From a virus (taxonomy: Duplodnaviria; Caudoviricetes): 64,000 nucleotides of DNA. The translations under genes were made by a program, and so were the position numbers. Below the pieces are notes generated by a model. It was not told the origin of the DNA and made no database searches. It saw only the letters and a list, made by a program, of their open reading frames with translations. Below, in pieces: positions 502 to 16,534 of the stretch. Location: positions 1-64,000 of the IMG/VR virus record IMGVR_UViG_3300017917_001910, one strand, 5' to 3'. The stretch's first letter is position 1. Each line of letters begins with the position of its first letter.

Positions 502-628
502 TAACAGCGTATATAAGAAATTGCGGTTTTGACTTTGGAAATGTAAGTCGCACAACTTTACATCTACACCCCATCAAAGTTACCATTTTGTGCAAAATAC
601 CGCAACTTCTCATATACGCAAAACGTTA
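502..628 (+). repeat. attC-like hairpin site
   Basis: TAAC-A-GCGTATATAAGAAATTGCGGT ... ACCGCAACTTCTCATATACGC-AAAAC-GTTA. Confidence 0.8.
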
Positions 629-841
629 TAAGCCATTTATGTAATCCTCAATAGCCTCTAAGTGTGCCAACATTAAAAATGCTTTATGGCATTGTTCATT
701 TTCTTTCGGTTGCTTACCTTCTTTTAATAGCGGTTCTGCTAATCTACCAGCGTTCACTTGCAATTTAAACTTTAAACGGCTTATAACATCGGCTATATGC
801 AATGCCTTTCCGTTTTCATCAAATACTTGTATATCAATCAT
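626..841 (-). CDS. Cassette-borne hypothetical protein spanning a core site (probable start MIDIQVFDENG at 841)
   Basis: ORF track 626..892; ALHIADVISR is encoded across the TAAC core at 784-787; stop lies in the GTTA core at 625-628. Confidence 0.6.
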   Translation of the reverse strand: MIDIQVFDENGKALHIADVISRLKFKLQVNAGRLAEPLLKEGKQPKENEQCHKAFLMLAHLEAIEDYINGL

Positions 842-906
842 TTTTGTATATTTATTAAGTTTTGTGCAAGTTTCACCATCGGCACTGCACATAGCCGTAA
901 GCGTTA
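784..906 (+). repeat. attC-like hairpin site
   Basis: TAAC-AT-CGGCTATATGCAATGCC ... GGCACTGCACATAGCCG-TAAGC-GTTA. Confidence 0.8.
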
Positions 907-922
907 TAGGTAATAAAATTTA

Positions 923-1117
923 CTACCATTGTCGTATAATTGAAAGTATTTCTTCCAATTCCATTCCATCACTAATCATTTCCGATATATCAGTTTCTTG
1001 TGAAGTGGTGAAGGTTGGTTCTCCATCAGGTATCTTATCAATACCATATCGTTTCTCAATCAACTTTTCTTCCCTAACTTTCAGTTCTACTTGTTTGAAT
1101 AATTTATCTTGTTTCAT
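923..1117 (-). CDS. Cassette-borne hypothetical protein
   Basis: 64-aa ORF lying wholly inside cassette body 903-1143. Confidence 0.6.
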   Translation of the reverse strand: MKQDKLFKQVELKVREEKLIEKRYGIDKIPDGEPTFTTSQETDISEMISDGMELEEILSIIRQW

Positions 1118-1139
1118 ATCCGTAAATTTTACATACCTA

Positions 1140-1229
1140 TAACAAAGTGTATAAGTAATGTGGCTAATAAAGTTTTGTTCTAAGTTGAAAGTATGTGCAA
1201 AGCCACACTACTCATACACTCAACCGTAA
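1140..1229 (+). repeat. attC-like hairpin site with mutated right core (GTAA)
   Basis: TAAC-AA-AGTGTATAAGTAATGTGGCT ... AGCCACACTACTCATACACT-CAACC-GTAA. Confidence 0.75.
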
Positions 1230-1401
1230 TACATCATTCTTAACCAATTTGTATCCTTCTTGTTCAGCTATTTTTTCCAACCAATGTTTAATGTAAAAAT
1301 TCACATCATCATCTGCTTCTTCGTGTTCCCATCTTACAACTTGTCTTAAATTATATTCCCAAGAGTATTCTCATTGAATTTTTCCATAGCAGAACGATGT
1401 A

Positions 1402-1530
1402 TAACATCAGATATATTCAAGTTTTCTTCTGACTCGTTAAATCTTTTAATGTGTTTTAAATCTTTCATCTTCGTATGTTATTTTAGTGTATATATTAAAA
1501 AGAAAACCTAAATATATCTGAGTATCGTTA
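1402..1530 (+). repeat. attC-like hairpin site
   Basis: TAAC-A-TCAGATATATTCAAGTTTTCT ... AGAAAACCTAAATATATCTGA-GTATC-GTTA. Confidence 0.75.
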
Positions 1531-1731
1531 GCGTAAATTGCCACTATTACAATATTTGTCTGTGCAAAATGGTTTTCCCATAGAATAACCACTTCTACCA
1601 CATTTTTGACAGTTATTAGGTGGCAACTGTCCACTAACACCAAATAAACGCAATAACCGTGCTTTTGCTTCATTTGATGTTATATGTCCTTCTCTAAGGT
1701 CTGATGCTATTTGTAAAATTTCTTCTTTCAT
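1528..1731 (-). CDS. Cassette-borne small Cys-rich (possible Zn-finger) protein spanning a core site
   Basis: CQKC...CTDKYC; LLRLFGVSGQ crosses the TAAC core at 1635-1638; stop in the GTTA core at 1527-1530. Confidence 0.6.
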   Translation of the reverse strand: MKEEILQIASDLREGHITSNEAKARLLRLFGVSGQLPPNNCQKCGRSGYSMGKPFCTDKYCNSGNLR

Positions 1732-1761
1732 ATCGTTACTGCGTTTATTTGTGAACCGTTA
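1635..1761 (+). repeat. attC-like hairpin site
   Basis: TAAC-AC-CAAATAAACGCAATAAC ... GTTACTGCGTTTATTTG-TGAACC-GTTA. Confidence 0.8.
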
Positions 1762-1770
1762 TAAGTAATA

Positions 1771-1932
1771 TTATTTTTGTTTTGAATTTTTATAACTATC
1801 GTGTGTTTTATTAACAGCATCTTGAACACTTTCCATCCAAGTTCTAAATATTGGTCTGAAGTTAAATATACTCATCTCAGCATCCCAAATTACTTTTGGT
1901 ATTTCAATTTTAATAATTTTTCGGTTTTTCAT
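1771..1932 (-). CDS. Cassette-borne hypothetical protein, about 53 aa (MKNRKIIKIEIPKVIWDAEM...)
   Basis: Manual translation inside cassette body 1758-1980. Confidence 0.5.
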   Translation of the reverse strand: MKNRKIIKIEIPKVIWDAEMSIFNFRPIFRTWMESVQDAVNKTHDSYKNSKQK

Positions 1933-2055
1933 AATTTAATTTTTTTATATGGTAAAACAAAAATAATACATACTTATAACAACAAGTTTGTGAAATAAAC
2001 CGCTTTCGATTTGTCCGTAAGTTAATCGGTTAATTGAATTTTTGTGTTTCATATA

Positions 2056-2089
2056 CTTAAAGATAAGAAAAACATTTCATATTTACAAA
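2056..2089 (-). promoter_or_regulatory. Bacteroidota-type promoter (-33 TTTG / -7 TATCTTTA) reading into array 1
   Basis: Minus strand TTTGTAAATATGAAATGTTTTTCTTATCTTTAAG; nearly identical to 16535-16568. Confidence 0.6.
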
Positions 2090-2586
2090 TAAAAGTCGCT
2101 GTGATATGGTAAAGTATTGTTATTCAATGTATTATTTTTAGTTTCATCCTCTAATATACGTTCTTCTGTAGAAAGAAGTCCTTTTCCGAACTTCTTTAAT
2201 CTTTTCCAATAACGTTCTTTAATACGGTTAGATATACGAATTGGATTTCCTTCATCATCAATTCGTACGAACTTCATTTTTGTATGAGTTACAATTTCTT
2301 GAATGCCTGTATATACGTTATGCTTTCTGGCTTCAATATATAATGTTATAGAAGTATTTCCGAATTCCGATACTTCTCCATAAATCTTTATAATATTTCC
2401 TAACTTTATGGGCTTTTTAAAGATAAACTCATCTACTTTTATAGTAATCATTCTAGGTGTATCGCAAATTTGAGCAGAATATACTGCAGAAGCTTCATCT
2501 ACCCACCCGACTAATGTACCTCCAAACATATTGTTATGAATACCAATATCCGATGCTTTACATATATGTGTACTTATTAGTTCCAT
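2083..2586 (-). CDS. Acyl-CoA thioesterase (hotdog fold)
   Basis: HNNMFGGTLVGWVDEA...F.KPI.LG...GNTSI...FVRIDDEG, YciA-like motifs. Confidence 0.85.
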   Translation of the reverse strand: MELISTHICKASDIGIHNNMFGGTLVGWVDEASAVYSAQICDTPRMITIKVDEFIFKKPIKLGNIIKIYGEVSEFGNTSITLYIEARKHNVYTGIQEIVTHTKMKFVRIDDEGNPIRISNRIKERYWKRLKKFGKGLLSTEERILEDETKNNTLNNNTLPYHSDFYL

Positions 2587-2587
2587 G

Positions 2588-3307
2588 TTATTTATTATTG
2601 TGATAATCTATTAATTTCCATTTACCGTCTTTTGTTTCTACTAATGCCGTACAATTTTCACACCAATCTCCAGAATTCATATATTCGTCTTTTAAAGATG
2701 GTTGATGAATATGTCCGCATATTGCTACTTGACATCCTTTTCCCTTTGCTAATCTAACAGCATTTATTTCAAAGTCATTTATAAAGTTCGTAGCTTTCTT
2801 AATACCATTTTTAATATCCTTGGATATTGAATAGTATGGTAATTTTCTCCATGCTCTCCAACGATTATACCAACGGTTTATCCAAAGCGCAATATCATAT
2901 CCAATACTACCAATATAAGCTAACCACTTTACTTTTGTAATAAAGACATCTAATATATCTCCATGAAATATATAATAACGAATACTTCCGTGTTGATGTA
3001 TATAATCTTCTACGATTTTTATGTTTCCTAAGTCAAATGGAAGAAAGTCTTTTAAGAATTCATCATGATTACCTCTAAGCCAAATAACTTCTGTGTCCGT
3101 TTCTGATATTTTAAGAATCTTTCTTATAATTTTAGTGTCTTTTTTAGTCCATTTACTTCCTCTTTGTAAAGACCACCCATCAATAATATCTCCGTTTAAG
3201 ATTAATGTTTCCGTAGATATTTTATCTAAGAAATCTAGTATATCATCCCTTCTAGCAGCCTTACTTCCTAAGTGTAGGTCTGATATTATTACTGTATTAT
3301 ATTTCAT
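2588..3307 (-). CDS. Metallophosphoesterase, UDP-2,3-diacylglucosamine hydrolase (LpxH/YbbF)-like
   Basis: ISDLHLG, LNGDIIDGW, RGNHD, FHGD, CGHIH, YMNSGDWCE motifs. Confidence 0.85.
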   Translation of the reverse strand: MKYNTVIISDLHLGSKAARRDDILDFLDKISTETLILNGDIIDGWSLQRGSKWTKKDTKIIRKILKISETDTEVIWLRGNHDEFLKDFLPFDLGNIKIVEDYIHQHGSIRYYIFHGDILDVFITKVKWLAYIGSIGYDIALWINRWYNRWRAWRKLPYYSISKDIKNGIKKATNFINDFEINAVRLAKGKGCQVAICGHIHQPSLKDEYMNSGDWCENCTALVETKDGKWKLIDYHNNK

Positions 3308-4002
3308 TTCCAGTAGTTATAATCTTCTTTGAAAAATGTATCATCATGTCTGTTAAACCAACATCTTATCATTAACTTACACATATATAATACTCCTTTA
3401 TTTTTAAATCTTCTCGAAGAAGTGCTGGCATAGAAATTAAAGATCTTAAAATATTTTGGATTAGCTTTCATTGATAAATGAAAATCTTCTGCAAACTTAT
3501 CTTCTTCATTAAACTGACCCAGCTCCTTAAAGTATTCTGAATTAAAAAGCATAAATCCTCCGACTGCAAATGGCGACTTAAATGATATAATCCACTGAAC
3601 TAAATCAAATACTTTATATACTAAAGCATATTTCATATCCCAGGTAGTTATATTGCAAGTAGCTAACTTAATGTCATTAATAATCATTTTAGATACTATA
3701 TAATGTAAAGGTACATCAGTTACATCCATATCAGCATCTAAGAATAAAACATAAGGTGTTTTAACTTCTTTAAATCCATTATTACGAGCAATTGCCGGAA
3801 GACCTCCTTTAACTACTTTAATGTCATTTATACCTAAAGCAACTAATTGATCTATATAATCTAATGTATCATCTGTAGAAGAATCTGCTATAATAATATT
3901 ACAACTATGCATGGATAGTAATTTTACTAATGTATTTGCTAATCCAACTCCTTCATTTTTACACGGAATAACAACTGTTAAGTTATCTTTAAGATTCATC
4001 AT
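3304..4002 (-). CDS. Glycosyltransferase family 2
   Basis: VVIPCKNE, IIADSSTD, ARNNG, LFLDAD, EDF, TSSRRF. Confidence 0.85.
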   Translation of the reverse strand: MMNLKDNLTVVIPCKNEGVGLANTLVKLLSMHSCNIIIADSSTDDTLDYIDQLVALGINDIKVVKGGLPAIARNNGFKEVKTPYVLFLDADMDVTDVPLHYIVSKMIINDIKLATCNITTWDMKYALVYKVFDLVQWIISFKSPFAVGGFMLFNSEYFKELGQFNEEDKFAEDFHLSMKANPKYFKIFNFYASTSSRRFKNKGVLYMCKLMIRCWFNRHDDTFFKEDYNYWK

Positions 4003-4285
4003 ATAATACCTCCGTAATTGGTTCTAAAGTACCGTAAATATCCATTTTAGTTTTTAATTCTTTTGCTTTATTAATATACCAAGAAGCTTTCTTAGCATCT
4101 TGTTCTAATGGTTGATCTGGTTTATCTCCCATACGCATTTTATATTTGAAAGCATTCATTTCACAAAACGCAATTGTTTTTTCAATGCCCCAAATATCTA
4201 TCATCATATTAATTACTTCTTTACTGAATGTATTATAATGCTTAGGATGATTAACGTGTTCGTAATTATTATTTGTTGTTGTCAT
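3989..4285 (-). CDS. DUF3310 family protein (T7 gp1.7-like nucleotide kinase domain)
   Basis: VNHPKHY...FCEMNAFKYKMR...K...D.KKA.WY. Confidence 0.8.
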   Translation of the reverse strand: MTTTNNNYEHVNHPKHYNTFSKEVINMMIDIWGIEKTIAFCEMNAFKYKMRMGDKPDQPLEQDAKKASWYINKAKELKTKMDIYGTLEPITEVLYDES

Positions 4286-4287
4286 TT

Positions 4288-4503
4288 TTATTTTATTTTA
4301 TTAAAGAATCTTCTTACGATATATCCTCGTGCTATTGATAAGAATGTAAATAATATTGTAGCCATTCCTAATTGACTGTAAGTATACTTCATTCCGACCA
4401 TACTGTATATAATAGGGCTAAAGATAAGAGTTGTTAAGATTCCAATGCCAGTATTAGTAATACTTTCGAGTATCGAATGTTTTTTAGTTTGTTGTCCCAT
4501 CAT
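4288..4503 (-). CDS. Small membrane protein
   Basis: QTKKHSILESITN...two hydrophobic helices...RGYIVRRFF. Confidence 0.7.
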   Translation of the reverse strand: MMGQQTKKHSILESITNTGIGILTTLIFSPIIYSMVGMKYTYSQLGMATILFTFLSIARGYIVRRFFNKIK

Positions 4504-4747
4504 TTTTATCTAAGTTACTGTATTTAGCTGATGTATATGTTCCAATCATACCTCCTATTGTTGCTGGTATTAATGCCCAATGATCTTCGATATAACTAAT
4601 AGCCGTAAATGCGCCGCATAACATAATTAAAGCCCCGAATATTGAAGCTTTGATGGCTTGATGTTTTGCCATTGCTTTAATATAAATGCCCCAAAAATAA
4701 TCTGTAGCCATCATTATAAAAAATACTAATATATAAGTATAGTCCAT
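4484..4747 (-). CDS. Small membrane protein
   Basis: Three hydrophobic segments; overlaps its neighbour as in an operon. Confidence 0.65.
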   Translation of the reverse strand: MDYTYILVFFIMMATDYFWGIYIKAMAKHQAIKASIFGALIMLCGAFTAISYIEDHWALIPATIGGMIGTYTSAKYSNLDKNDGTTN

Positions 4748-4748
4748 T

Positions 4749-5270
4749 TTATTTAGTTGTTTTTGTTTTTTTAGCAGCTACTTTCTTTGGCTTAGCTGTT
4801 GGTATTGTTTTATTTAATATAATAGCTTCGACTTGTGCTTCAGTATATCCATACTTAGAAACTATTTTAACAATTGCCTCTATATTATTAGATTCTGTTA
4901 AGATATTTAAGTATTCATATGCTTGAGTCTTCGAACATTCATATTCTTGGGCGATTAAGCTAGTTAGATGATCATTATAAGCACTATCTTTCGTTCCCTT
5001 TATCCAAGTACTATAATAACTTCTCTTTGGTAATAGCTCGTTAAAGAACGTATATACTTCCCTCGGAGATAAGTCTGATGATATGGCATAACGTTGAAAT
5101 TCATTACATATCTCTAATAAATCAGGATGCATCGAAAGAATCATAATAATCATGAAAGGTTCTACTGCATTCTTTTCTTCATCGCTAAGATCGGACCACT
5201 TTCTTTCTGTTGTGGTCATCACTTTTACAATATCAAATACACTTACTCTTTTATTTTCTTGTTCTGCCAT
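4749..5270 (-). CDS. Putative clamp-loader small subunit (T4 gp62-like)
   Basis: PFMI...LSM...D...NE.Q...LPK...WIK...A.EYL pattern; lies next to the clamp loader. Confidence 0.55.
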   Translation of the reverse strand: MAEQENKRVSVFDIVKVMTTTERKWSDLSDEEKNAVEPFMIIMILSMHPDLLEICNEFQRYAISSDLSPREVYTFFNELLPKRSYYSTWIKGTKDSAYNDHLTSLIAQEYECSKTQAYEYLNILTESNNIEAIVKIVSKYGYTEAQVEAIILNKTIPTAKPKKVAAKKTKTTK

Positions 5271-5491
5271 TATGGTTGAGGAAATCTATTAGGAATAGAA
5301 CCACATGCACTGCATCTATATGTTTCTACAGGAATAAGTTCTTCTTTTCCTGACGGAGACATCATAGGCGATAATTCTTTAAAGAACATTACCGGAAAGA
5401 ATGTAGTATTCTCACATAAATTATGTTCTTCATCTAAAACAGCACACGTCATTGTTGGTTGTTCTGATAGTTTTATATTTAAATTTTCCAT
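5270..5491 (-). CDS. Hypothetical Zn-ribbon protein
   Basis: LSPMMSPSGKEELIPV...CSACG. Confidence 0.6.
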   Translation of the reverse strand: MENLNIKLSEQPTMTCAVLDEEHNLCENTTFFPVMFFKELSPMMSPSGKEELIPVETYRCSACGSIPNRFPQP

Positions 5492-5496
5492 GTTGT

Positions 5497-6438
5497 TTAT
5501 TTTTTATTAATTTCTCCTATGATTTGTCCGAACATTGCTGCTACGTTGATATCTTTATTTACGCTAAAACTATCCTTATACTGATATTCAGCAATGATTA
5601 ATATAATAGGCCCTATATGACCACTTCCATATGATTCAATTTCATCATACATTAATCTATACAAATCCGCAAAATCTTTTATCTTAGCATCTGCAATTGT
5701 TTGTCTAATATTCGTAAAGCAATCTTTAGGATTCTTTTCTGATTTAAGAATATCAATACATTTCATTGCATAGCTTCCGCGCTCTGCAATTCCTTTAGAT
5801 ATAGTTAATTCTCCGTTAGATGAATGTTGTTGACAAAGATTAATAACTTTCCTGATATCAGGATATCCTTCATTAACTAATGTTGCAACATCTTTAATAT
5901 CATATATAATGTTTTCGTTATTTAAAATCTTTACTATTCTTTCCGCAACTTCTTTTTTGCTAGGAGGAATGATTTGAAATACTTGACATCTACTTTGAAT
6001 AGCAGGAATAATTCTATCCACATAATTACAGGTCAGGATAAAACGAGCATGTTTACTAAACGTTTCCATTAAGTTACGAAGAGCGGCTTGACCGTTAATC
6101 GTTACATAATCACTTTCATCTAAAATAACTACTTTAAACTTATTAAAGCTAATAGTACTTACAAAAGATTTAATCTTATCTCTAATAACATCAACTGAGT
6201 TTTCATCGGATGCATTAATATAAAGAGTTTCAAACCCAAAGGTATTAGTAATTAATTTGGCACAGCTCGTTTTTCCTGTTCCTGGAGGACCGTATAATAA
6301 AAGATGCGGAATATCCTCTTTTTGAAGATATTGCCCGATCTTTTCTTTTATATGCTCATTCCCAATATAATCATTAATAGTTACTGGCCTGTATTTCTCG
6401 CAGAAAATGTCGTGTTCTTGATATATACTAATTGACAT
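5497..6438 (-). CDS. Clamp loader AAA+ subunit (RFC / T4 gp44-like)
   Basis: EKYRP, GPPGTGKT, INASD, ILDESD, QAALRN, SRC motifs. Confidence 0.95.
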   Translation of the reverse strand: MSISIYQEHDIFCEKYRPVTINDYIGNEHIKEKIGQYLQKEDIPHLLLYGPPGTGKTSCAKLITNTFGFETLYINASDENSVDVIRDKIKSFVSTISFNKFKVVILDESDYVTINGQAALRNLMETFSKHARFILTCNYVDRIIPAIQSRCQVFQIIPPSKKEVAERIVKILNNENIIYDIKDVATLVNEGYPDIRKVINLCQQHSSNGELTISKGIAERGSYAMKCIDILKSEKNPKDCFTNIRQTIADAKIKDFADLYRLMYDEIESYGSGHIGPIILIIAEYQYKDSFSVNKDINVAAMFGQIIGEINKK

Positions 6439-6730
6439 TCTTAGAAGCTAAGTCGGTTGTAAACATATAACGATATCTCATTAATAATCTTTGCATCTTT
6501 TGACGAGATTTATATTCTTCAAAAGTCTCTACATCACTACGTTTGTTTGGTAATGCTGTAATATCATTAACTAATCTTAAGTTAGAATCTAAAGATTCAT
6601 CAATAATCCAATTTACAAATCTAAAGTGCTGTTTAGCACCGATTACATAACTTGGAACAGACATATTCATATTCTTTAAAAATGATTCTTTAAGTCTGTT
6701 TGTTTCGTGTATAATTGCTGTATTTATCAT
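6428..6730 (-). CDS. Hypothetical protein
   Basis: 100-aa ORF co-oriented and tightly packed in the operon. Confidence 0.55.
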   Translation of the reverse strand: MINTAIIHETNRLKESFLKNMNMSVPSYVIGAKQHFRFVNWIIDESLDSNLRLVNDITALPNKRSDVETFEEYKSRQKMQRLLMRYRYMFTTDLASKNVN

Positions 6731-6739
6731 GATATAATG

Positions 6740-7456
6740 TTATTGTATGCTCAACTGAACTAAGTAATAAGTACTGTTAAAATCTTTACCTGTAAAGGTA
6801 ACTCTAGCTAATCCTTGCCCAGATACTTCAAATATTCCTGATTCTGCTCCTTTATTTGCAGTTAAGATTTCTTTAAAGATATTAGCAGAGAAACAAGTAG
6901 CACTTAATTTATTATGCGATGTAGCATCTACATTAAACTTAATTCTATTAGTATTTACTGTCGAATAGTTAAGTAAGATTTCTGATGATATTGCATCTGA
7001 TACTACTGCAAAATTTTCTGCTTCTGGCATACCATTCTTAGCTTTTAAGAATTTTTCAGAGAATTCTTTAGTAATATTAATGCTCACATCAAATTGAGGA
7101 AGTGTTTTTACTTTTGGAACTGCTTTAATAACAGATAAATCCGCTAACATATAAGTAATCGATGTATTCTTATCTTCAACAATCATCGAGAATACTTTAT
7201 CTCCAACTTTAACGAACTTAATCTCTACTGAATCATCTAATACAGAAAGCATTTTTAATAATTGACTCGTAGTATATACTGCCAATTCTGCATCTTCCAT
7301 ATCAACGGATTGTAATGTAACTTCTCCAATTACATTTTGATTTGCGGAAATAAAAGAACATAATAACTGTCCTTCTTTTACAACTAACTTAACACTGTCG
7401 GTATTACCAGCTAAATAATAGCGATTGATAAAACTAACTAATTTTTCTTTTTGCAT
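6740..7456 (-). CDS. DNA sliding clamp (T4 gp45/PCNA-like)
   Basis: 238 aa, alternating beta/alpha pattern ending STYYLV; directly upstream of the clamp loader. Confidence 0.75.
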   Translation of the reverse strand: MQKEKLVSFINRYYLAGNTDSVKLVVKEGQLLCSFISANQNVIGEVTLQSVDMEDAELAVYTTSQLLKMLSVLDDSVEIKFVKVGDKVFSMIVEDKNTSITYMLADLSVIKAVPKVKTLPQFDVSINITKEFSEKFLKAKNGMPEAENFAVVSDAISSEILLNYSTVNTNRIKFNVDATSHNKLSATCFSANIFKEILTANKGAESGIFEVSGQGLARVTFTGKDFNSTYYLVQLSIQ

Positions 7457-7494
7457 AACTTATTTTTTATTTTCTTAATTATAATGATTTTATT

Positions 7495-8703: not shown

Positions 8704-8765
8704 TTTATAACTTATTTTTTATCTAATATAAAGATATTATTTCATATATCCTAATGTATGAACAT

Positions 8766-8791
8766 AAAAAAAGCCCTTAATTAGGGGCTTT
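8766..8791 (-). terminator. Intrinsic terminator
   Basis: AAAGCCCT-TAATT-AGGGGCTTT hairpin followed by a U-tract on the minus strand, after 8804. Confidence 0.7.
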
Positions 8792-8803
8792 AATTATTTA
8801 TGA

Positions 8804-9583
8804 TTATTTCTTTAATCCGTCATTTATTAAATAAAAAAAGTTAGATTTACTATCTCGTTTAATTTCTGGATATACTTCTTTTAGTATATCGTATATTTTA
8901 AATGCTAACTTTGGGTCGATGCTGAATAAATTTAATTCTTCTTTACCAGATATATCTTGTTCTTTTAATTTCTTTTTAGGTCTTTTATTGAAACTAGCAA
9001 ATTTATCTACCGGTGCTGGTCCGGTTTTCTTTATTATGTATAAAGTAATAAACGAAAGGGTTGCAATAGTAAAGAATACAAAAAATGCATACATACCTAA
9101 TTTAAACCAAATACTTCCTTCAGTTGCTTGGGCGCCATACAAATCAACCATAATCTTCATTACATCAGATTCAGCCATTCCTTGGATTGTTTTGTAATAC
9201 CATTGATTGAATGATCTGTCTATGTATTGTAGACCACCGGCAACAGATAATAGTCCACTTACAAAAGAACCTATCCCTCCACCTAATAAACCACCTTTTG
9301 CAAATTGTTTAAGCCTGTCTACAAAGCCTTCATTTAAGCTTTGTGAGTCTGTTTCTAACTCCATTTGGGCTTTTTCCATAGATCCTTGTGGAAGGGGCTT
9401 AGTAGTTAAGTTATCTATATTAACGTGATTAGAAGCTTCTTCGTAGTTATCTTTAGCAGCCTTTACTGCCGCTGCTTTAATCTTTGATAAAAAGTCTGTT
9501 AGCTTAGATTCAGTTAGTTGTTGTTCAAATACTGCTAGTTGAATTTCTTCCTTAATGATCTTTTTTAAATCTGATTTTTTCAT
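8804..9583 (-). CDS. Hypothetical membrane-associated protein with MKKSDLKKIIKEEI leader
   Basis: 259-aa ORF with two hydrophobic segments. Confidence 0.7.
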   Translation of the reverse strand: MKKSDLKKIIKEEIQLAVFEQQLTESKLTDFLSKIKAAAVKAAKDNYEEASNHVNIDNLTTKPLPQGSMEKAQMELETDSQSLNEGFVDRLKQFAKGGLLGGGIGSFVSGLLSVAGGLQYIDRSFNQWYYKTIQGMAESDVMKIMVDLYGAQATEGSIWFKLGMYAFFVFFTIATLSFITLYIIKKTGPAPVDKFASFNKRPKKKLKEQDISGKEELNLFSIDPKLAFKIYDILKEVYPEIKRDSKSNFFYLINDGLKK

Positions 9584-10204
9584 TTATTTCTTTTTGAAGT
9601 TAGGATTTTTTAAGATAGCTTTTTTCATTAAAGCTATGTCACTATGATACTGAGCAATCCTATCTGTACTATTAACAGATGGATTACTAATTTGATACTT
9701 GTTTGTACCCTTCTTGATAAGAACTTTTTTATCTATCAATTCTTTTATCATTTGATCAAAGCTACCTTTGTATTGATACACATCTTTATTTTCACGTACT
9801 CTAATCATTCCTTGATCAGTACTTGCTTCTTTTTCCAAGTATGCAACTGTGATTCCGTTTGGACCACTACCCATCACTTCATAGGTTTTTGTATTGTAAG
9901 AACTTTCACTTTCTATAGTCCCTTGTATAAGTTCAAGTACAGCATCTAATGGACCAGTCATAGTTTCCTCTGCTTCCATAGTACCAGCAGCTAATTCTTT
10001 AGGATTTTCTAGACCAGCCTTTTTATAGATTCTTGCAAGAGTCATTTGCATATCGTCATGGGCACCTTCATCCTCTGGGTAACGTATACGTGATTTTAAA
10101 GCTGTTTTAAGTGCGGTTAATAAAGCAGGGTCAATAGTTACATTTTCCTTTAATACTTTACGAATCTCTTCTTTGATCAATTCTTTTAGTTCTAATTTTT
10201 TCAT
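9584..10204 (-). CDS. Hypothetical protein with MKKLELKELIKEEI leader
   Basis: 206-aa ORF; late-type motif upstream. Confidence 0.7.
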   Translation of the reverse strand: MKKLELKELIKEEIRKVLKENVTIDPALLTALKTALKSRIRYPEDEGAHDDMQMTLARIYKKAGLENPKELAAGTMEAEETMTGPLDAVLELIQGTIESESSYNTKTYEVMGSGPNGITVAYLEKEASTDQGMIRVRENKDVYQYKGSFDQMIKELIDKKVLIKKGTNKYQISNPSVNSTDRIAQYHSDIALMKKAILKNPNFKKK

Positions 10205-10221
10205 ATTTATATTTAATATAA

Positions 10222-11316
10222 TTATTGTTCCAAATAAAAAACATTATCTTTTAACGCTTCTATTCTATAATAATTGGTATCTAAATGTTTTGCCCATTCT
10301 TCAATACCTTCTTTATATATATCATAGTTCTCCATACGGTCTTTGATATAATCTATAATTGTTGTATAATTTTCCGTGTAGTTTAAATAACTTAATGTCC
10401 ATTCCGACGGATATCTCCATTTTTCTGGAACTATTTCTTTAAAGTTTAATCTGTCAGGTGCTAATGGTATTGCTCCGTGCATTATAGCTTCAAAGGCTGT
10501 TATAGAAGAAGAATCAATTAAATCTAAGATTAATACGTATTTAGAAGAAGCTAATAATCCATGATATTGAGTTTCGTTTGGCATTTTATCTTCTATACAT
10601 ACCCATTCGTATTGAGGCATTGCTCGTTGCAGTTCACGAAATATAATCATGTTACGATCTACTGTACCTTTATCAGCAAATAAAATCATATCACGTTTCT
10701 TTGTTTTTTTAAATTGCTCAGCATAATCACGTACATGAGCCATTGGAGGTCCGGCTTTTTGAACTCGTCCCGGAGTATTAAATAAATTCTTTGCTCCGAA
10801 TGTTTTAAATAAGCTCTTAAGTAAAGATAAATGATAATCACTATCATAATAGTTATGATTAATAGCAGCTACTAAAGCTCGTTCTGCATTTTTTTGCCAT
10901 GTTAATGTTTTAGCAAATGCTAGATATGATGTTTTATTAAATGACCCAGTTTGCCAAAATCCATGAATCCAAACAGGTATACGATACACTGTAGATAAAT
11001 AACGTAATTGAAAGATAGCAGGGTTCCAAGCATCCATAAAAATAAAATGATCTCCTTGGTGTACTTCTTTATTGTAAAAAAGCTCCGCAAATCTGGTAGA
11101 CTGCGAAGCTTGTTGATTTACAATATCTTTAAATGTTAATGGACTATTATCTATAATTGATAATGGGTTCGGCTGAATATCATAAAGAGTCTTTACTTGA
11201 TACTTAAGTGATTTCTTTTGGATATACTCCTCTAAACAATCTCGAAGATTATTTTGCCAATTACGTATATATTTTAATTCAATAGTCTTACTGTCTAAGA
11301 TATATATCGTCTTCAT
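10222..11316 (-). CDS. GT-B glycosyltransferase-like protein, divergent paralog of 18678..19733
   Basis: Shares F.F.DAWNP.I.Q..Y, IHG.W..GS and P..PDRL...E motifs with its paralog; probable start MKTIYILD at 11316. Confidence 0.7.
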   Translation of the reverse strand: MKTIYILDSKTIELKYIRNWQNNLRDCLEEYIQKKSLKYQVKTLYDIQPNPLSIIDNSPLTFKDIVNQQASQSTRFAELFYNKEVHQGDHFIFMDAWNPAIFQLRYLSTVYRIPVWIHGFWQTGSFNKTSYLAFAKTLTWQKNAERALVAAINHNYYDSDYHLSLLKSLFKTFGAKNLFNTPGRVQKAGPPMAHVRDYAEQFKKTKKRDMILFADKGTVDRNMIIFRELQRAMPQYEWVCIEDKMPNETQYHGLLASSKYVLILDLIDSSSITAFEAIMHGAIPLAPDRLNFKEIVPEKWRYPSEWTLSYLNYTENYTTIIDYIKDRMENYDIYKEGIEEWAKHLDTNYYRIEALKDNVFYLEQ

Positions 11317-11675
11317 TATACTAATTCGCAACGCGCACCATTTTCATTATCTTCCCAAACTTCGACCCAATTACATCCAAATTCATTAAGTATTTCTTTT
11401 GCGAGCATTTCGCAAGATCTATGATCAAATAAATGACTTCGAGAAGATTCATTATAATATTTTTCTTTAAGATAATCTATAATATCGCGCTTAAACATTA
11501 TAAATTCTTTATCTCGATCATCATGAAATACTTCTAACGAAGCTTTAAATGTGAATATGTGTCTATGATAGTCAGATAAGAATCCTACTTCTGGAAATAT
11601 ATCTTTTGCAGATTCCCATCTATGAATACCGTCTACATTAACGCTAACTATAACTGTTGTTTTTAAATCTCTCAT
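11316..11675 (-). CDS. QueD/PTPS-like (T-fold) protein
   Basis: GIHRW...HRHIF...HDDRD.EFI...SCEMLA...VWEDNENG; His-rich PTPS-like pattern. Confidence 0.55.
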   Translation of the reverse strand: MRDLKTTVIVSVNVDGIHRWESAKDIFPEVGFLSDYHRHIFTFKASLEVFHDDRDKEFIMFKRDIIDYLKEKYYNESSRSHLFDHRSCEMLAKEILNEFGCNWVEVWEDNENGARCELV

Positions 11676-11697
11676 CCTATAATATAATAAAAACTAA

Positions 11698-14241
11698 TTA
11701 AAATTCAAAGAAATTTTTTCCGTAATTATTCTTCGGCACTTCTGACCAACCTAATGCTCCAAAGAAATCATTAAGTTTATTTTCTAAGGAAGCTTCAAAG
11801 ATGCTCGTATAATCAATATGTTCCTTAACGATAGAATAGATATCCATTGGATCATTAAAGCCCGTTAAAGCTAAGGTTTCGATACCTAATCGATTAGGTT
11901 TTAGGTAAGTCCATTTTATTTTATCTCCGTCACTAATAGGTGCCATAGAATTAATTTTAAAGTGTTCTAATAAGTCATTAAAATTAGCAGCAGATTTTGC
12001 ATGAATAGGCATACCTTTTGGTCTTGTTTTAAATATAGACCCAGTTTTCTTACAAGGATACTTACTTAATTCTTTAATACCAGAGATGGTCATAATATCA
12101 TAAATGTCTAATGAAGGTAATGAATCTTTAAGATCAAATATCTTATCAACGATTTCTTGCTTTTCTGCTTTATTAAGAATATCAATAATAATGCCTGACA
12201 TAAATCCTCTAAATGCTTTTGGAAATGAAGATCTTACAACATCTAATCCTTTTACATCTAGTTTATATTCTTTTTTACCATTTGTCATTTTAGATATACT
12301 TACACCCTTTTCAGAAATAATTTTTTGAGCATATCGCTTTTTTGCAATCCACATTGCCGTTTCAGACACATATTCTTGTTTTGTTTGAAAATGATGTTCT
12401 GTTGCATTAAATGCGTTCTTTGCAAAATCATTAAACGTTGAATTAATAACACTTTCACAAGCTACGGCTAATTTAAAAGTAATATCTGCACATTCATCTC
12501 TAGTTAATTCACGTCCTTGGTTTCTTTGCATCTTTTTAATTAACGGCATTGCTGAGAAGAATGCAGAATCCGTATCAATATACAATACATAATCAATGCC
12601 ACTCGTTCCTAATTTTTGGTTTAGCCAATTATTAGCATAATTCGTTTTATGCATAATAACTGCTTTACCTCCTAATGTAGTTCCTTCAGCATTATCAATA
12701 TCATAAAATCTAAATCCAGCATTACCTAAAACACCATATAAAGAATTAGATAAGATTTTCATTGTTAATTGACGCGAATCAAAGAAACGATACATTTTTT
12801 CATTACCAGATTCACCATATTTCTTTGCAAGTTGTCGATATTCTGTTCTTTCCGTATCCCATTTTTCTAAGATAGATGGAACTAATCCTTTTGTTTTAAG
12901 ATCATAAATAACGCCAACGGCTGAGATAGAAAAGTTATTTTCTTCTAAGAATCTTCTTAGCTCCATTCCTTTCCAAGACTTAGATTTATACTTATATACA
13001 TAAGTTTCATCATTCTTCATGAATTTTGTATGGTCCCAATTTTCAATCTTACATACCTTAGTTTCTGGAGAAATATTAATTGTTCTTTGAGTTGAAGGAT
13101 ATAAGGCTTTTAAGTCCAAGTCAAATACCCATTCATACAATCCTGGTTTAGGATCTTTTACAAATGCTCCTTCAAATCCATTTTCGTCAGAATCTTCATC
13201 TTCGTCACTTTCTTCTCTTAAGGGTTTATTAGTAGCAATGATTCCTAATCGATTTAAGTAAGTAAGACAAGCTCCATCCAAATATCTACTAGATGCAAAT
13301 ACATCTTCATAAGGAACATGTCCTTTATGAGCAATGTTTCTTGCTAATGTAATAAAGTCTAGTTTCTCATCTAAGTCTACAACCAATTGAACGTCATTAA
13401 TATTATACTCAATAAACTTTTCTAAATCTTGTTTATAAAGATTATCTAAGTCTCCTTCATACTGAATCTTTCCGCGACCTAATTCTTTTTGAGATATAAA
13501 TTCTAAAGCATAAGAAGGTTCTTCGTTATAAGTAAATGCTTTATACAAATACATATAATCTAGTGCAGCTACGCCACCAATATTCATTCTGTCTTTACGG
13601 AAGTCTTTTGAAACTACTCCTACTGGACTTAATTGCTTTGCTACATTAGCACCTAAAAGCTTTTTAGTTCTGTGATAAATATAAGGAACGTCAAATCCAT
13701 CTATATTCCATCCAGTTAAAATATCTGGGCTAATTTCTAGATAAAGTTGAAAGAATCTATTTAATAAGTCCTTTTCTGTTGAAAATGCTTCAAATATATA
13801 CTTATCTGTTCTTTTATTTTTTGTAAGATGTTCTTTATCTAATAATAATACATTCCAATCTTTAGAAATATTATCATATAAAGTTATTGCCGTGACTTCA
13901 TTATCTGCATCCCATGGAGTAGAATAACCATCACCTTTTGATACTTCAATATCAAAAAACAATGTAGTTATATCTTCTGAAATATCATCTGTATCTCCGT
14001 AATTATCTATTAGAACACGTATTTCAGGTCTTATATCTGATTCATATATAATTCCTCTTTGTTCATCTTCTTTATCCCAATTATAAACTTTCTCTACACG
14101 ATTACCGTCTAAAGCAGTATGCTTTCCGTTTGGAGCTTTAATATAAGCATATTTCTTATACTTAAAATTAAGACGACCTTTTTTATCGTCCCAAACAATT
14201 ACTTCGTTTTGTTCTCTATTGTAATATACGTTTTTATACAT
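11698..14241 (-). CDS. polB: DNA polymerase family B (T4 gp43-like)
   Basis: FFDIEV (exo I), GWNIDGFD, DLKALYPS, KILSNSLYG, YIDTDS, KKRYA, VKGLDVVRSS. Confidence 0.97.
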   Translation of the reverse strand: MYKNVYYNREQNEVIVWDDKKGRLNFKYKKYAYIKAPNGKHTALDGNRVEKVYNWDKEDEQRGIIYESDIRPEIRVLIDNYGDTDDISEDITTLFFDIEVSKGDGYSTPWDADNEVTAITLYDNISKDWNVLLLDKEHLTKNKRTDKYIFEAFSTEKDLLNRFFQLYLEISPDILTGWNIDGFDVPYIYHRTKKLLGANVAKQLSPVGVVSKDFRKDRMNIGGVAALDYMYLYKAFTYNEEPSYALEFISQKELGRGKIQYEGDLDNLYKQDLEKFIEYNINDVQLVVDLDEKLDFITLARNIAHKGHVPYEDVFASSRYLDGACLTYLNRLGIIATNKPLREESDEDEDSDENGFEGAFVKDPKPGLYEWVFDLDLKALYPSTQRTINISPETKVCKIENWDHTKFMKNDETYVYKYKSKSWKGMELRRFLEENNFSISAVGVIYDLKTKGLVPSILEKWDTERTEYRQLAKKYGESGNEKMYRFFDSRQLTMKILSNSLYGVLGNAGFRFYDIDNAEGTTLGGKAVIMHKTNYANNWLNQKLGTSGIDYVLYIDTDSAFFSAMPLIKKMQRNQGRELTRDECADITFKLAVACESVINSTFNDFAKNAFNATEHHFQTKQEYVSETAMWIAKKRYAQKIISEKGVSISKMTNGKKEYKLDVKGLDVVRSSFPKAFRGFMSGIIIDILNKAEKQEIVDKIFDLKDSLPSLDIYDIMTISGIKELSKYPCKKTGSIFKTRPKGMPIHAKSAANFNDLLEHFKINSMAPISDGDKIKWTYLKPNRLGIETLALTGFNDPMDIYSIVKEHIDYTSIFEASLENKLNDFFGALGWSEVPKNNYGKNFFEF

Positions 14242-14263
14242 ATTTTAATATAATGATAATACC

Positions 14264-15061
14264 TTATATAGGCAAATTTATTTTAGATAAAAGTTGATTT
14301 GATACATGAGTGTAAATTTCAGTAGTTTTAATATTAGAATGACCTGCAAGTTTTTGTATTATTCTAATATCCGTCCCGGATTCTAATAAGGCAGTAAAAC
14401 AAGAATGTCGTAGCGTATGAATATGTCCCGATGAATCTATATATTTTTTATAAATTTTTTGACAACTACCTATTGAATAATAAAGAGAATCTTGCCCGTT
14501 AAATAGATATTCTATAGGCTTATATTGTTTAAAATACTCTCTAAGTAATGTTAATACATTTTCTGAGAGCGGTACAATCCTATCTTTTCTGCCTTTAGCA
14601 TTTTTAATGTGTATAAGCATCCTTTTCGAGTCAATATCCTCAATTTTTAGATTGACTATTTCAGACACTCGTAATCCAACTGAGTAGGTTAGTGTTAAGA
14701 TTGCTTTATGTTTAAGATTTTCTATTTTTTGCAGTTGTGTTTTGATAAGATTACTATCAACTACCTTCGGTAATTTCTTTTCTGATTTTGGTCTTTCTAT
14801 TTTAGATAAATGAATGTCTTTTTTATTTAGTATATACTTAGAAAATAATTTCAATGCTCCTATATATTGATTTTGTTGACTACAAGAAGTATATGGATAT
14901 TTTTCAAGGAATGAGACTATCTGTTGAGTTCTTACTTGATATGGGTCTTTAATTTTTTCCGTTTCTAAAAAAAGTTTTAAATAAGAAATATATAACTTGA
15001 TACTGTTATTAGAATAGTTTTTATATCTTAATTTTTCTTCAAAAATTTTAAGAATTTTCAT
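14264..15061 (-). CDS. Tyrosine recombinase, integron-integrase-related (SAM-like N-terminal domain)
   Basis: GLRVSE, AKGRKDRIVPL, HTLRHS, DIRIIQKLAGHSNIKTTEIYTHVS; R-K-H-R-H-Y catalytic set intact; no IntI-specific insertion. Confidence 0.92.
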   Translation of the reverse strand: MKILKIFEEKLRYKNYSNNSIKLYISYLKLFLETEKIKDPYQVRTQQIVSFLEKYPYTSCSQQNQYIGALKLFSKYILNKKDIHLSKIERPKSEKKLPKVVDSNLIKTQLQKIENLKHKAILTLTYSVGLRVSEIVNLKIEDIDSKRMLIHIKNAKGRKDRIVPLSENVLTLLREYFKQYKPIEYLFNGQDSLYYSIGSCQKIYKKYIDSSGHIHTLRHSCFTALLESGTDIRIIQKLAGHSNIKTTEIYTHVSNQLLSKINLPI

Positions 15062-15097
15062 GTTTAAATTATTGATTTTATTAGAGATTTAGGTAGG

Positions 15098-15130
15098 TTA
15101 TGTATATATAATAGTTATATGCAATGCTAC
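15098..15130 (+). other. attI-like site
   Basis: First GTTA core (15114) lies 53 bp upstream of the integrase start and, unlike all other cores, has no preceding hairpin arm (TATGTATATATAATA-GTTATATGCAATGC). Confidence 0.55.
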
Positions 15131-15196
15131 GTTTCTGCTTCGTATTAAGTTTGGTGTATAATCTTTTTGTTTTATTTTTTCTTCCACCACACAAAA

Positions 15197-15634
15197 TTAA
15201 CGATTATATACCATAAAAGGTGCTGTTGAATCTGTTTCAAAATTGTTATCTTCTTCTGAAACTCTAAAACCATTTTTAATATACCAATCTACTAATTCTT
15301 GTTGATTTAAACCACCGCTTGTTTTAATATTATTTGATATTGATGCTCTTAAAGATAGTGGTACACCTGTTTTATCAGAATATTTTTTTAGTTTATTAAG
15401 TAATTTAGTTGCGTATCCTTTACCTTTAATATCAGACCAAATTTCAGATATATAAATAGAAACTTCACCATCAGATAATTGTTCAATATTTAATTCAGCG
15501 TGTGCATATCCATCATCAATTTTAACTTCGTCTAATTCAAAATACAATAATTTATTTAATCTTGAATTTTCAAATATTTTCTGTTCATTCAAATATTCAC
15601 GTATAGTAGTTGCTATAAATTTTCTTAATTCCAT
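15197..15634 (-). CDS. Cassette-borne GNAT-fold protein (probable start MELRKFIATTIREYLNE)
   Basis: KGKGYATKLL (acetyl-CoA-binding motif A) and LVDWYIKNGF. Confidence 0.7.
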   Translation of the reverse strand: MELRKFIATTIREYLNEQKIFENSRLNKLLYFELDEVKIDDGYAHAELNIEQLSDGEVSIYISEIWSDIKGKGYATKLLNKLKKYSDKTGVPLSLRASISNNIKTSGGLNQQELVDWYIKNGFRVSEEDNNFETDSTAPFMVYNR

Positions 15635-15753
15635 ATTATCAAATAGTTTTATTCTATATATAAATATCCAAATTTTAATTTCCCACTCACAAAAATAAAA
15701 CAAAAAGGTTCATCTCTCGTATCAAAGTTTGTAGGTTAAAACCGCACTGCATA

Positions 15754-15842
15754 TAACAAAATGTATAAGAAAGTTTGCTATCAAGTTTAGTACTAATTTG
15801 AAAGTTCATCATAAGCAAACCTTCTCATACACCCAACCGTTA
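15754..15842 (+). repeat. attC-like hairpin site
   Basis: TAAC-AAAA-TGTATAAGAAAGTTTGCT ... AGCAAACCTTCTCATACA-CCCAACC-GTTA. Confidence 0.8.
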
Positions 15843-15853
15843 TGTTCAATGAA

Positions 15854-16147
15854 TCAAAAACCAATTTCTTCTAATCTTTTTTTAATCGCTTTAAGAACTT
15901 TACTTCTTATTTTATTTGATTTGTTCATACCACTCCAAAGACCTTGTAGTTTAACTAACTTTTCCATTCCTTTTTCACCATTACATTTAGATATATCAAA
16001 TAAAATATCTTCTAATTCCTTATCTTCCATTGTGTATATTTTCTTATCTTCCATTGTGTAGATTTTTGATTCACTAAACATAACATCAGATATATGTAAT
16101 TTTTTATCTGTGTTATCAAGTTCTGTGTTCTTATTATCTTTATTCAT
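15854..16147 (-). CDS. Cassette-borne hypothetical protein spanning a core site
   Basis: KLHISDVMFS crosses the TAAC core at 16081-16084. Confidence 0.65.
   Translation of the reverse strand: MNKDNKNTELDNTDKKLHISDVMFSESKIYTMEDKKIYTMEDKELEDILFDISKCNGEKGMEKLVKLQGLWSGMNKSNKIRSKVLKAIKKRLEEIGF
16019..16066. repeat. 24-bp tandem duplication (KIYTMEDK x2)
   Basis: CTTATCTTCCATTGTGTA(T/G)ATTTT twice. Confidence 0.9.
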
Positions 16148-16204
16148 ATTATTTAAGTTTTGTGTTTCAATTTAAGAAAAAACTACATATATCTGTGACC
16201 GTTA
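16081..16204 (+). repeat. attC-like hairpin site
   Basis: TAAC-AT-CAGATATATGTAATTTTTT ... AAAAAACTACATATATCTG-TGACC-GTTA. Confidence 0.8.
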
Positions 16205-16213
16205 TACGTAATG

Positions 16214-16468
16214 CTAATCATACAGCGTTACCTTTCCATCTTTATAATCATAACTTCCACTACGACCCAACACCCAAAAAAGAACACCTGCGTCATTTGC
16301 ATATTCTTTCTGTGTTTCAATATCACCACATTCTCTTGCGTTTTCAAGTCCTGCCAACGCACATCGTAGTCGTTCTTCTATCTCAGAAGCACTACGCATA
16401 ACAACAGATAAAAGCAATTTTTCATCACTTCTATTTGAGTTATCTTGCATAATTTTACTTTCGTCCAT
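16214..16468 (-). CDS. Cassette-borne hypothetical protein spanning a core site
   Basis: KLLLSVVMRS crosses the TAAC core at 16399-16402. Confidence 0.65.
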   Translation of the reverse strand: MDESKIMQDNSNRSDEKLLLSVVMRSASEIEERLRCALAGLENARECGDIETQKEYANDAGVLFWVLGRSGSYDYKDGKVTLYD

Positions 16469-16511
16469 TTTATTTAATTTTAGTTAAAACTGCTTTTATC
16501 TGCAACCGTTA
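16399..16511 (+). repeat. attC-like hairpin site
   Basis: TAAC-AA-CAGATAAAAGCAATTTT ... AAAACTGCTTTTATCTG-CAACC-GTTA. Confidence 0.8.
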
Positions 16512-16534
16512 TAAACAATGCTACTTTTATTATA

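Follow-up and report, generated by a model that had tools for sequence, protein, structure and literature searches.

attC-like hairpins encoding interchangeable protein leaders point to an integron-like cassette platform in uncultured freshwater phages

Small genes in the first 64,000 nucleotides of the IMG/VR virus record IMGVR_UViG_3300017917_001910 (hereafter the window) are interspersed with attC-like hairpins, and several of them start inside a hairpin loop and run through the core of the hairpin into the adjacent gene body. The record is linear, comprises 115,252 bases and has a CheckV completeness of 59%. The locus raises the question of what these sites are and whether recombination at them joins protein starts to unrelated proteins, as an initial annotation had proposed when it described a possible combinatorial swapping of N- and C-terminal modules in a fixed reading frame. 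Comparison with related loci and proteins indicates that modular reassortment of leaders and bodies at the valine codon within the core is real and extensive. With moderate confidence, we take the sites to be attC-like hairpins of an integron-like phage platform run by an Xer-like recombinase, in which cassettes would move whole at the outer core and hairpin modules would be exchanged as well; such a platform would be widespread in uncultured freshwater phages.

Three-frame translation returned the same five minus-strand open reading frames (ORFs), with the same coordinates and junction peptides, that the initial annotation had reported: each starts in a hairpin loop, crosses the 3′ arm and reads the core GTT as a valine codon. 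Hairpin C (782–908; like all the hairpins below, on the minus strand) holds the loop ATG at 841 and the valine codon at 787–785 of ORF 626–892, with the junction peptide ALHIAD-V-ISR. Hairpin E (1400–1532) provides the start codon at 1468, a leader of 21 residues and the valine codon at 1405–1403 (NLNISD-V-IHR; ORF 1346–1468, 40 amino acids), and hairpin F (1633–1763) a start codon at 1731, a leader of 31 residues and the valine codon at 1638–1636 (LLRLFG-V-SGQ; ORF 1528–1731). Some 14 kb further on, hairpin I (16079–16206) has its start codon at 16147, again a 21-residue leader and the valine codon at 16084–16082 (KLHISD-V-MFS; ORF 15854–16147), and hairpin J (16397–16513) its start codon at 16468 and the valine codon at 16402–16400 (LLLSV-V-MRS; ORF 16214–16468). 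It was likewise borne out that the TAA of the following core serves as the stop codon of three ORFs, namely 94–273, 626–892 and 1528–1731, with stops at 94–96, 626–628 and 1528–1530; across the cassette ORFs, such a stop occurs in only 36 of 216.

If recombination had joined leaders to bodies, the same leader should be found on unrelated bodies, joined exactly at the valine codon, and this is what we found when the leaders were searched against a collection of 5.8 billion proteins. The first 40 residues of ORF 15854–16147 match 255 protein clusters; among the best 120 of these 255 matches, 119 carry the I leader, and 118 of the bodies fall into 70 unrelated families between which there is no blastp link at E <= 1e-3, so that this leader stands on at least 70 body families. 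In 108 of these 119 proteins exactly 21 residues precede the valine, and the third residue after it is serine in 96 and arginine in 15, a preference that results from a conserved AG after the core. ORF 1528–1731 gave 69 matches, of which 62 carry the 31-residue F leader, over 37 body families, and its own body is also found behind other N-termini. The converse, one body with several leaders, was found with ORF 16214–16468: among its 16 matches (14 in the alignment; P0121 and P0122, near-identical to the window, were omitted), the J body stands behind at least six different leaders, joined at the valine codon, and one match bears the window's J leader on an unrelated body. The other hairpins or leaders in front of the J body occur in the metagenome locus L091 and in proteins P0125–P0135. 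The bodies of P0125 and P0126 are about 98% identical to the window's J body and their leaders unrelated; in L091, the J body comes after a different hairpin, and its 97% nucleotide identity to the window sets in precisely at GTTATGCG. Leaders that always stayed with the same body in homologs would have spoken against exchange; they do not always do so, though cassettes normally move whole, as set out below.

The same pattern is seen at the DNA level in loci related to the window. We found 107 relatives of the window's recombinase in viral contigs and kept 80, which are 52–88% identical to it. Among hairpin pairs at least 80% identical and with defined neighbors, 172 of 173 have unrelated bodies on both sides; 267 further pairs, in which a body was undefined on some side, were set aside. 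Within hairpin clusters, the loop ORFs consist of near-identical leaders joined to unrelated bodies at the valine codon. The E leader occurs on 10 bodies, namely the window's and nine unrelated ones of 76–112 residues, the I leader on nine cassettes, two of them with homologous bodies, and two more leader families have five and four members. In listings anchored on the flanks, conservation begins right after TAAC and ends at GTTA, past which only the semi-conserved AG, 9–10 nt after the G, remains.

Several observations on individual proteins touch on this modularity. The window's E-leader ORF (1346–1468, in cassette E, 1232–1405), at 40 residues, compares with 76–112 residues in the nine relatives with the same leader, and the window's cassette E may be decayed. 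Protein P0025, of 153 residues, begins with an I-type leader and has a second, incomplete stretch resembling a leader, …KLHMSDV…, in its middle, as if two cassettes had been joined in frame by way of a hairpin that was deleted in part. Finally, eight genes with their own starts (L007_7, L058_5, L063_1, L009_6, L028_13, L060_1, L060_3 and L063_6) are alike over their first 30–50 residues and then diverge; they start 106–124 nt past the core, or 66 nt in one case, and their shared N-termini may be a second kind of N-terminal module, located inside the bodies.

The reading frame through the core had been described as fixed. To the nine window sites we added 268 sites on the + strand of 76 non-duplicate loci, and the cores could be placed at 270 of these 277 sites, the other seven being dropped; the site set is incomplete, as some loci with strong model matches contribute no sites (for example L005, L031 and L075). 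Counting as through-ORFs those of at least 35 residues with at least 15 codons beyond the GTT, we obtained 125, of which 121 start in the loop, and which are distributed as 86, 12 and 27 over the GTT frame, +1 and +2. The 142 sites with hairpins of 96–135 nt gave 76, 3 and 20, with 40 using their own downstream start and three having no ORF; counted per hairpin cluster, the numbers are 50, 2 and 18 at 80% identity and 30, 2 and 13 at 70% identity. The GTT frame thus accounts for 69% of the through-ORFs overall and 77% of those from long loops, and frames are never mixed within clusters at 80% identity. Because of this split and of the purity of the clusters, the GTT frame is a strong bias accompanied by a second compatibility group and not a fixed rule: the frame across the core is not random in the larger set, and its fixity did not survive.

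The 82 ORFs in frame 0 that were measured have a median length of 82 residues. Many bodies of the E family have no ATG near the junction and yet, in nine of ten members, they are open for 76–112 residues, so that the loop ATG would be the only plausible start. In the second frame, the leader hairpins L007_2, L055_0, L046_1, L063_8 and L025_4 encode a hydrophobic stretch followed by a lipobox-like cysteine (for example …LLAVVLSSCG…); on our own reading of the peptides, these frame-2 recombination sites encode most of a lipoprotein-type signal peptide.

Either end of a hairpin could in principle be the place of crossover, since both carry an identical core. Four lines of evidence point to the outer core, R′, as the routine cut, in TAA/C on the coding strand or G/TT on the + strand (the slash marking the cut). 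The array next to the recombinase gene begins with a body, not with a hairpin. Between the recombinase gene and cassette 1 lies an attI-like region (15062–15113, minus strand), and the crossover would fall between G at 15113 and T at 15114 of the + strand; the homology that links cassette 1 to cassettes of other arrays stops at 15114, beside attI. Cassette 1 (15114–15839) consists of hairpin H and an ORF with its own start that weakly resembles GNAT proteins (E 0.0097), cassette 2 (15840–16201) of hairpin I and ORF 15854–16147, and cassette 3 (16202–16508) of hairpin J and ORF 16214–16468, all on the minus strand. A contig of X3, one of four metagenome runs compared with the window as Logan contigs (X1, X2, X3 and X5), carries 15114–15842 with different flanks. 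Cassette J recurs whole, hairpin and body, in L085, L086 and L088; in L085 and L086, both metagenome loci, the identity runs from the TAAC of the hairpin to the next TAA/C, and the neighbors are unrelated. In L086, nothing separates cassette J from the motif TATTATATATAC and a recombinase gene whose identity to that of the window is 63%. In the window, too, this motif follows the crossover, as TAAC/TATTATATATAC.

Comparison between arrays points the same way. With the duplicate loci L011, L018, L019, L039, L057 and L078 excluded, there are 779 high-scoring segment pairs (HSPs) of at least 80% identity, of which 369 cover a whole hairpin and 410 were set aside. Of the 369, 290 stop less than 25 nt from both cores, 77 enter the downstream body and two the upstream one, an HSP being counted as entering a body when it runs at least 25 nt past the core. 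Among the five body pairs that are at least 89% identical in amino acids, the upstream hairpin is common to both members in four, and the downstream hairpin clearly in none. The inner core GTT was therefore rejected as the routine border: a body adjoins attI, copies run from TAAC to TAA/C, and the HSPs are asymmetric by 77 to 2. By comparison alone, the borders thus lie at G/TT of R′ with new cassettes beside attI, as in integrons. Because the site lies at the 5′ end of the gene, the routine cut leaves the ORFs unbroken, and leader and body normally move as one. The proposal that crossover occurs at the GTT junction accordingly holds in one respect, as leaders are exchanged there, and not in the other, as the routine cut appears to be at R′.

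The recombinase itself, encoded at 14264–15061 on the minus strand between the two hairpin clusters, is a 265-residue, Xer-like tyrosine recombinase (Pfam Phage_integrase at 1e-34, plus Phage_int_SAM_4) without the insert typical of IntI. Its best NCBIfam match, XerA_Arch, scores 185.6 bits, itself under the cut-off of 220. The IntI model TIGR02249 reaches 157.4 bits, with a cut-off of 265, in two stretches, with residues 3–182 on profile positions 1–182 of 315, and PRK15417 reaches 110.6 bits with a cut-off of 435. The best PDB match is the XerC-like chain 4a8e, and IntI4 (2a3v) aligns over residues 8–177 only. The enzyme does not belong to the IntI clade, with its IntI-specific additional domain.

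The sites that this enzyme would act on are folded structures conserved in structure more than in sequence, as are the imperfect palindromes of integrons that fold as single strands. A hairpin script, an inverted-repeat scan and a covariance model identified nine complete attC-like sites in two clusters, 285–1763 and 15752–16513; the covariance model, R1, recovers the nine at 78–117 bits (116.8 bits for hairpin C), all on the minus strand, and the hairpin script gave no site in bases 64001–115252 of the record. On the minus strand, each site reads TAAC, a spacer of about 5 nt, an arm of 15–17 nt, the loop, the complementary arm, 1–2 nt and GTTA, so that the spacer is asymmetric (about 5 nt versus 1–2 nt); there are 21 pairs, and the boxes R″/L″…L′/R′ of the imperfect-palindrome type are present. 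The L helix is fully paired (100%) in the alignment of the nine sites, with 10 of its 15 pairs changed on both sides in a compensatory manner. In 94 relatives, whose alignment was fitted to the model, 97.3% is paired and 13 of the 15 pairs are compensatory. Controls in which the partner was slid by 1–3 columns are 27–50% paired in the window and 27–52% over window and relatives together. One G.T pair on the minus strand is invariant (9/9 window sites, 87/87 relatives) and becomes A.C on the plus strand, and as DNA the minus strand is the more stable in 9/9 sites, by 0.2–3.8 kcal/mol. Extrahelical bases of the classical kind were not seen in the sites. In the 80 integrase loci, R1 matches 339 sites (E <= 0.01), and 299 of the 300 listed lie on the strand of the recombinase gene.

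Two classes of hairpin can be told apart. In one, loops of about 65–80 nt hold an A-rich region for initiation, an ATG and about 18–31 codons; in the other, which measures 41–83 nt in total, there are no codons and the cassettes use their own start. Hairpins of up to 95 nt almost never carry a leader, and the short leaderless types (41 nt and about 72–83 nt) form the commonest hairpin clusters in the related loci. A conserved stretch of 26–53 nt after the GTTA often trails the short hairpins, ending near the cassette gene's own ATG, and looks like a portable untranslated leader. In the window, three-frame translation gave no ORF from the loop at sites A, D and H. Hairpin A (285–402) reads ATG AAA TAA in its loop; hairpins D (1138–1231) and H (15752–15844, within cassette 1) have short loops and no leader, and the cassette gene at 923–1117, adjoining D, starts on its own. 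Hairpin B (500–630) goes with a doubtful ORF (464–613) that starts in the stem with the GTT in frame. A further hairpin (1–103) is truncated by the contig end, where its 3′ end is cut off, and scores 36.3 bits; it is on the core TAA of this hairpin, at 94–96, that ORF 94–273 stops.

In the mechanism we propose, the folding strand would be the coding strand, with each hairpin at the 5′ end of its cassette's gene. The comparisons show that the hairpin module is exchanged between cassettes with both borders inside the 4-nt cores TAAC and GTTA, which are paired in the folded R box, and that through this exchange a few leaders stand on hundreds of unrelated bodies and one body behind several leaders. 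Exchange of leaders at GTT would be a second event, probably rarer than cassette movement, and its mechanism is one that we only infer. The likeliest route would be that the other strand, which folds less stably, recombines as well, but more rarely. Its mirror-image TAA/C is the complement of the G/TT of the valine codon, such that the hairpin would contribute the G and the body the TT; the spacer and the 1–2 nt before GTT are observed to go with the hairpin type. According to the available sections of Qi et al. 2023 (PMC9892861), the top strands of classical attC sites do recombine, at lower frequency. Alternatively, a complete double exchange between two folded sites could take place, which would also swap the hairpin cores; with textbook geometry, its cut would separate the arm from the two bases preceding GTT, a position that agrees less well with the observed borders. 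The predominance of the GTT frame would then act as a rule of compatibility, under which hairpins and bodies stay in phase after an exchange, and this would explain the frame bias. The asymmetry of 77 to 2 would fit a higher exchange rate at R′ than at R″, and the main job of the leader would be to supply a translation start, its peptide being weakly constrained.

Several points weigh against this interpretation. The IntI insert is held to be necessary for folded-strand recombination, and the recombinase lacks it. The asymmetry of 77 to 2 is inflated by the conserved 26–53 nt that follow the core in the short types, and only about five of the 77 HSPs run for 100 nt or more. Close body pairs are few, at five, and in the pair L014_0/L016_0 the hairpins differ on both sides and the homology begins at the ATG and not at the core. 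About 23% of the long-loop through-ORFs are in another frame than that of GTT; at 14 of the 86 frame-0 sites the core reads GTTATG, so that the gene could begin at that ATG without a leader, and the rule by which ORFs were called is simple (first ATG, at least 35 residues). Two hairpins, site 5 of L060 and site 0 of L017, are hybrids: their spacer and the beginning of their 5′ arm correspond to another type, and the arm pairs imperfectly, which suggests occasional crossovers inside the stem. Every step, moreover, rests on the comparison of assembled sequences.

A first alternative, which we regard as unlikely though not negligible, is that the recombinase regularly crosses at the valine codon and that selection has favored the system as a combinatorial generator, able to put one of a small set of functional N-terminal tags on any body. 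It would fit the small number of highly conserved leaders and their constant length, exactly 21 residues in 108 of 119, the many-to-many pairing of leaders and bodies, the lipoprotein-type signal peptides encoded by the frame-2 hairpins, and the 31-residue F leader, which gives the impression, and no more, of a structured helix. Selection can be read from the substitutions. The J body, compared between the window and L085/L086, has 0.30–0.35 synonymous changes per synonymous site (pS) and 0.08–0.10 non-synonymous changes per non-synonymous site (pN), with a pN/pS of about 0.27; it is a real gene under purifying selection. The J leader has no synonymous change in 10.7 sites and one non-synonymous change, with a pS of 0.30 in the body, and the hairpin stems are invariant within families. 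Because the synonymous sites of the leader and the stems are frozen and those of the body are not, the leaders appear to be held mainly as nucleic acid. For the loop part, pN/pS is 0.36 in the E family (10 sequences), which would suit a selected peptide, and 1.55 in the I family (7 sequences), which would not. The constraint on the nucleic acid may be that of the recombination site or of the same hairpin in the mRNA; the leaders keep their length and frame, and their peptides are under a constraint that is weak or varies.

The frozen synonymous sites mean that the conservation of the leaders can be explained by the DNA site alone, and they point to a constraint on nucleic acid. A combinatorial generator is also at odds with routine borders at the other core, with leaderless hairpin types that serve the same recombination role, and with the absence of the leaders outside the arrays in this genome, where tblastn of the five leaders against the 115-kb record found the array copies only. 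The suggestion that swapping has been selected as a protein-making device thus found no support. More speculatively, and in our estimation rather improbably, the leaders could be addressing tags that hairpin exchange gives to captured small proteins, for example for packaging into the virion for injection or for lipoprotein export. If so, the array would be a recombination-driven, plug-and-play effector library, and the fixed frame through the core an interface standard that makes the parts interchangeable.

We also think it improbable that the hairpins are mainly RNA or expression elements, each an initiation region that travels together with a regulatory stem, like the PeSL promoter/stem-loop motifs of T4-type phages, shuffled by homologous recombination between repeats, with the recombinase incidental. 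The G.U pairs lie on the coding strand, so that the mRNA would fold alike, the loop holds an ATG and an A-rich region, and hybrid hairpins exist. In the accessible text of PMC2839356 and PMC4122927, modular shuffling by way of PeSLs is described, and the likeness extends to repeated stem-loop expression motifs that flank small variable genes in hyperplastic regions. The arrays studied here, however, adjoin a recombinase in a single orientation in the 80 loci, and their borders lie in 4-nt cores at the edges of the repeat and not inside it. The two ends of each body pair over 10–15 nt, G.T pairs included; the same cassette is found at attI in another phage; and homologous recombination within repeats could not part a hairpin from its own body. 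To our knowledge, PeSLs come with neither a dedicated recombinase nor cassettes delimited by cores, and they encode no leader. The 4-nt core borders and the linked recombinase appear to argue against membership of the sites in the PeSL class, in which variable genes lie between an early promoter and a terminator stem-loop and are shuffled by homologous recombination.

A third possibility, that the through-ORFs are an artefact, not translated from the loop, and that the open frames of the stem are a by-product of AT-rich conserved sequence, is in our view very improbable. The conserved stem is indeed stop-free in two of three frames, there are open stretches without a credible gene at sites A, B, D and H, and at 41-nt hairpins some of the ORFs called in frames 1 and 2 probably just extend, in the upstream direction, genes that have an ATG of their own. 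It would not account for E-family bodies without a junction ATG that stay open for 76–112 residues in 9/10 members, for in-frame continuity across 70 and 37 unrelated bodies, for hairpin clusters that never mix frames at 80% identity or for the purifying selection on the body that was examined. Least credible of all is that no exchange at GTT took place and that cassettes with the same hairpin are old duplicates with bodies diverged past recognition: strong nucleotide constraint on the hairpin and the fast evolution of small phage proteins would favor it, and it was rejected since identity falls from more than 90% to none within a few bases at GTTA, body lengths vary widely, and the J body in L091 (97% nucleotide identity) and the bodies of P0125 and P0126 (about 98% identity) stand behind a different hairpin or unrelated leaders.

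The integron-like platform that we favor has its closest counterpart in the sedentary chromosomal integrons of the Vibrio VCR type, whose attC sites are homogeneous. Common to both are a tyrosine recombinase beside an attI-like junction and an array of one-gene cassettes, folded sites with an R box (TAAC and GTTA) and an L box of which one strand appears to be favored, a crossover at G/TT, near-identical sites on unrelated genes, and first bases of each cassette that pair with its own inner core. The phage system differs in that its enzyme lacks the IntI insert and scores under the IntI cut-off, that the choice of strand would be marked by an invariant G.T pair instead of extrahelical bases, and that it is viral, with a site loop that encodes the start and leader of a gene. 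It also differs in orientation: the phage genes lie on the folding strand with the site upstream. The cassette ORFs are all on this (bottom) strand and point to attI and the recombinase, and they do not share the integron arrangement, in which promoterless cassettes run in the direction of the attC top strand and are expressed from Pc near attI.

Class 1 integrons offer a precedent for reading frames that cross a recombination site. In the part of the review available (PMC8876359), the short ORF-11/ORF-18 of attI1 is described as spanning the crossover point with its own initiation region and as aiding the translation of cassettes without start signals of their own, the core giving the stop codon; fused cassettes that produce proteins with changed N-termini are also described there. 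As far as that text goes, the attI1 helper is a single site that acts mostly by translational coupling, and its fusions are accidental, whereas the phage has in-frame leaders in at least 70 hairpin clusters. The loop ORFs, moreover, do not end at the core as ORF-11 does and continue into the body, with the median of 82 residues.

Classical attC clusters (CALINs) inside virulent phage genomes, found with classical attC models and recombined by IntI1, are reported in the available sections of PMC9892861; these resemble the present system in having attC-type sites and cassettes in phages, and those sections describe no phage-encoded recombinase without the insert and no loop-encoded leaders. These CALINs, including that of Polaribacter phage P12002L, might include a member of the present family. 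The best match of the recombinase among phage records is only 40% identical (Cellulophaga and Polaribacter phages), and no isolated relative was found among them. In the literature outside subscription journals, we found no description of loop-encoded leaders or of an insert-less phage integron. A comparable sharing of short N-terminal peptides is found in the internal proteins of T4, in which the capsid targeting sequence, a short conserved N-terminal peptide, stands on otherwise unrelated small proteins from variable loci. Unlike that sequence, the leaders described here are conserved at the DNA level within a recombination site.

Outside the arrays, the window from 2 to 14 kb holds phage replication genes on the minus strand, as judged by reading the ORF translations, among them an ORF of 847 residues that we take to be a family-B DNA polymerase and ORFs that are presumably clamp-loader-like. 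A Pfam search with nine cassette or neighboring proteins gave none above the cut-off. The adjacent ORFs 8804–9583 and 9584–10204 and the GNAT-like cassette ORF 15197–15703 have similar, K/E-rich N-termini with an …IKEEI… or …IREYL… stretch. Contigs from pond, aquatic, freshwater and lake-water metagenome runs contain the DNA of the window or close relatives of this DNA. Contigs of X3 and X5, from related strains, link 14246 straight to 16630, the shorter side of the joint matching over 215 and 255 letters, and 14247–16629 (2383 bp, with the recombinase, attI and the three-cassette array) is therefore present or absent as a block between close relatives. Contigs of X1 and X2 contain a joint that leads from 16569 back by 1546 to 15024 and has 37 letters on its shorter side. 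Repeats may have misled the assembly here, or attI and the array may exist in a duplicated or circular form. Joints with a side shorter than 40 nt, such as this one and 1520 to 1754, were not used as evidence.

How cassettes acquire their attC sites, and why near-identical sites stand on unrelated genes in one lineage, are long-standing questions. Because the site is here part of a reading frame, every site exchange can be traced in a protein, and database searches yield a table of leaders by bodies with hundreds of natural fusions and base-exact junctions. This makes it possible to test directly how sites are exchanged, how the strand is chosen and whether an Xer-type enzyme without the insert acts on folded DNA. 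The recombination sites would at the same time be protein front ends that can be exchanged, and would offer large phages a compact means of giving start signals, and perhaps tags, to small accessory proteins that turn over fast.

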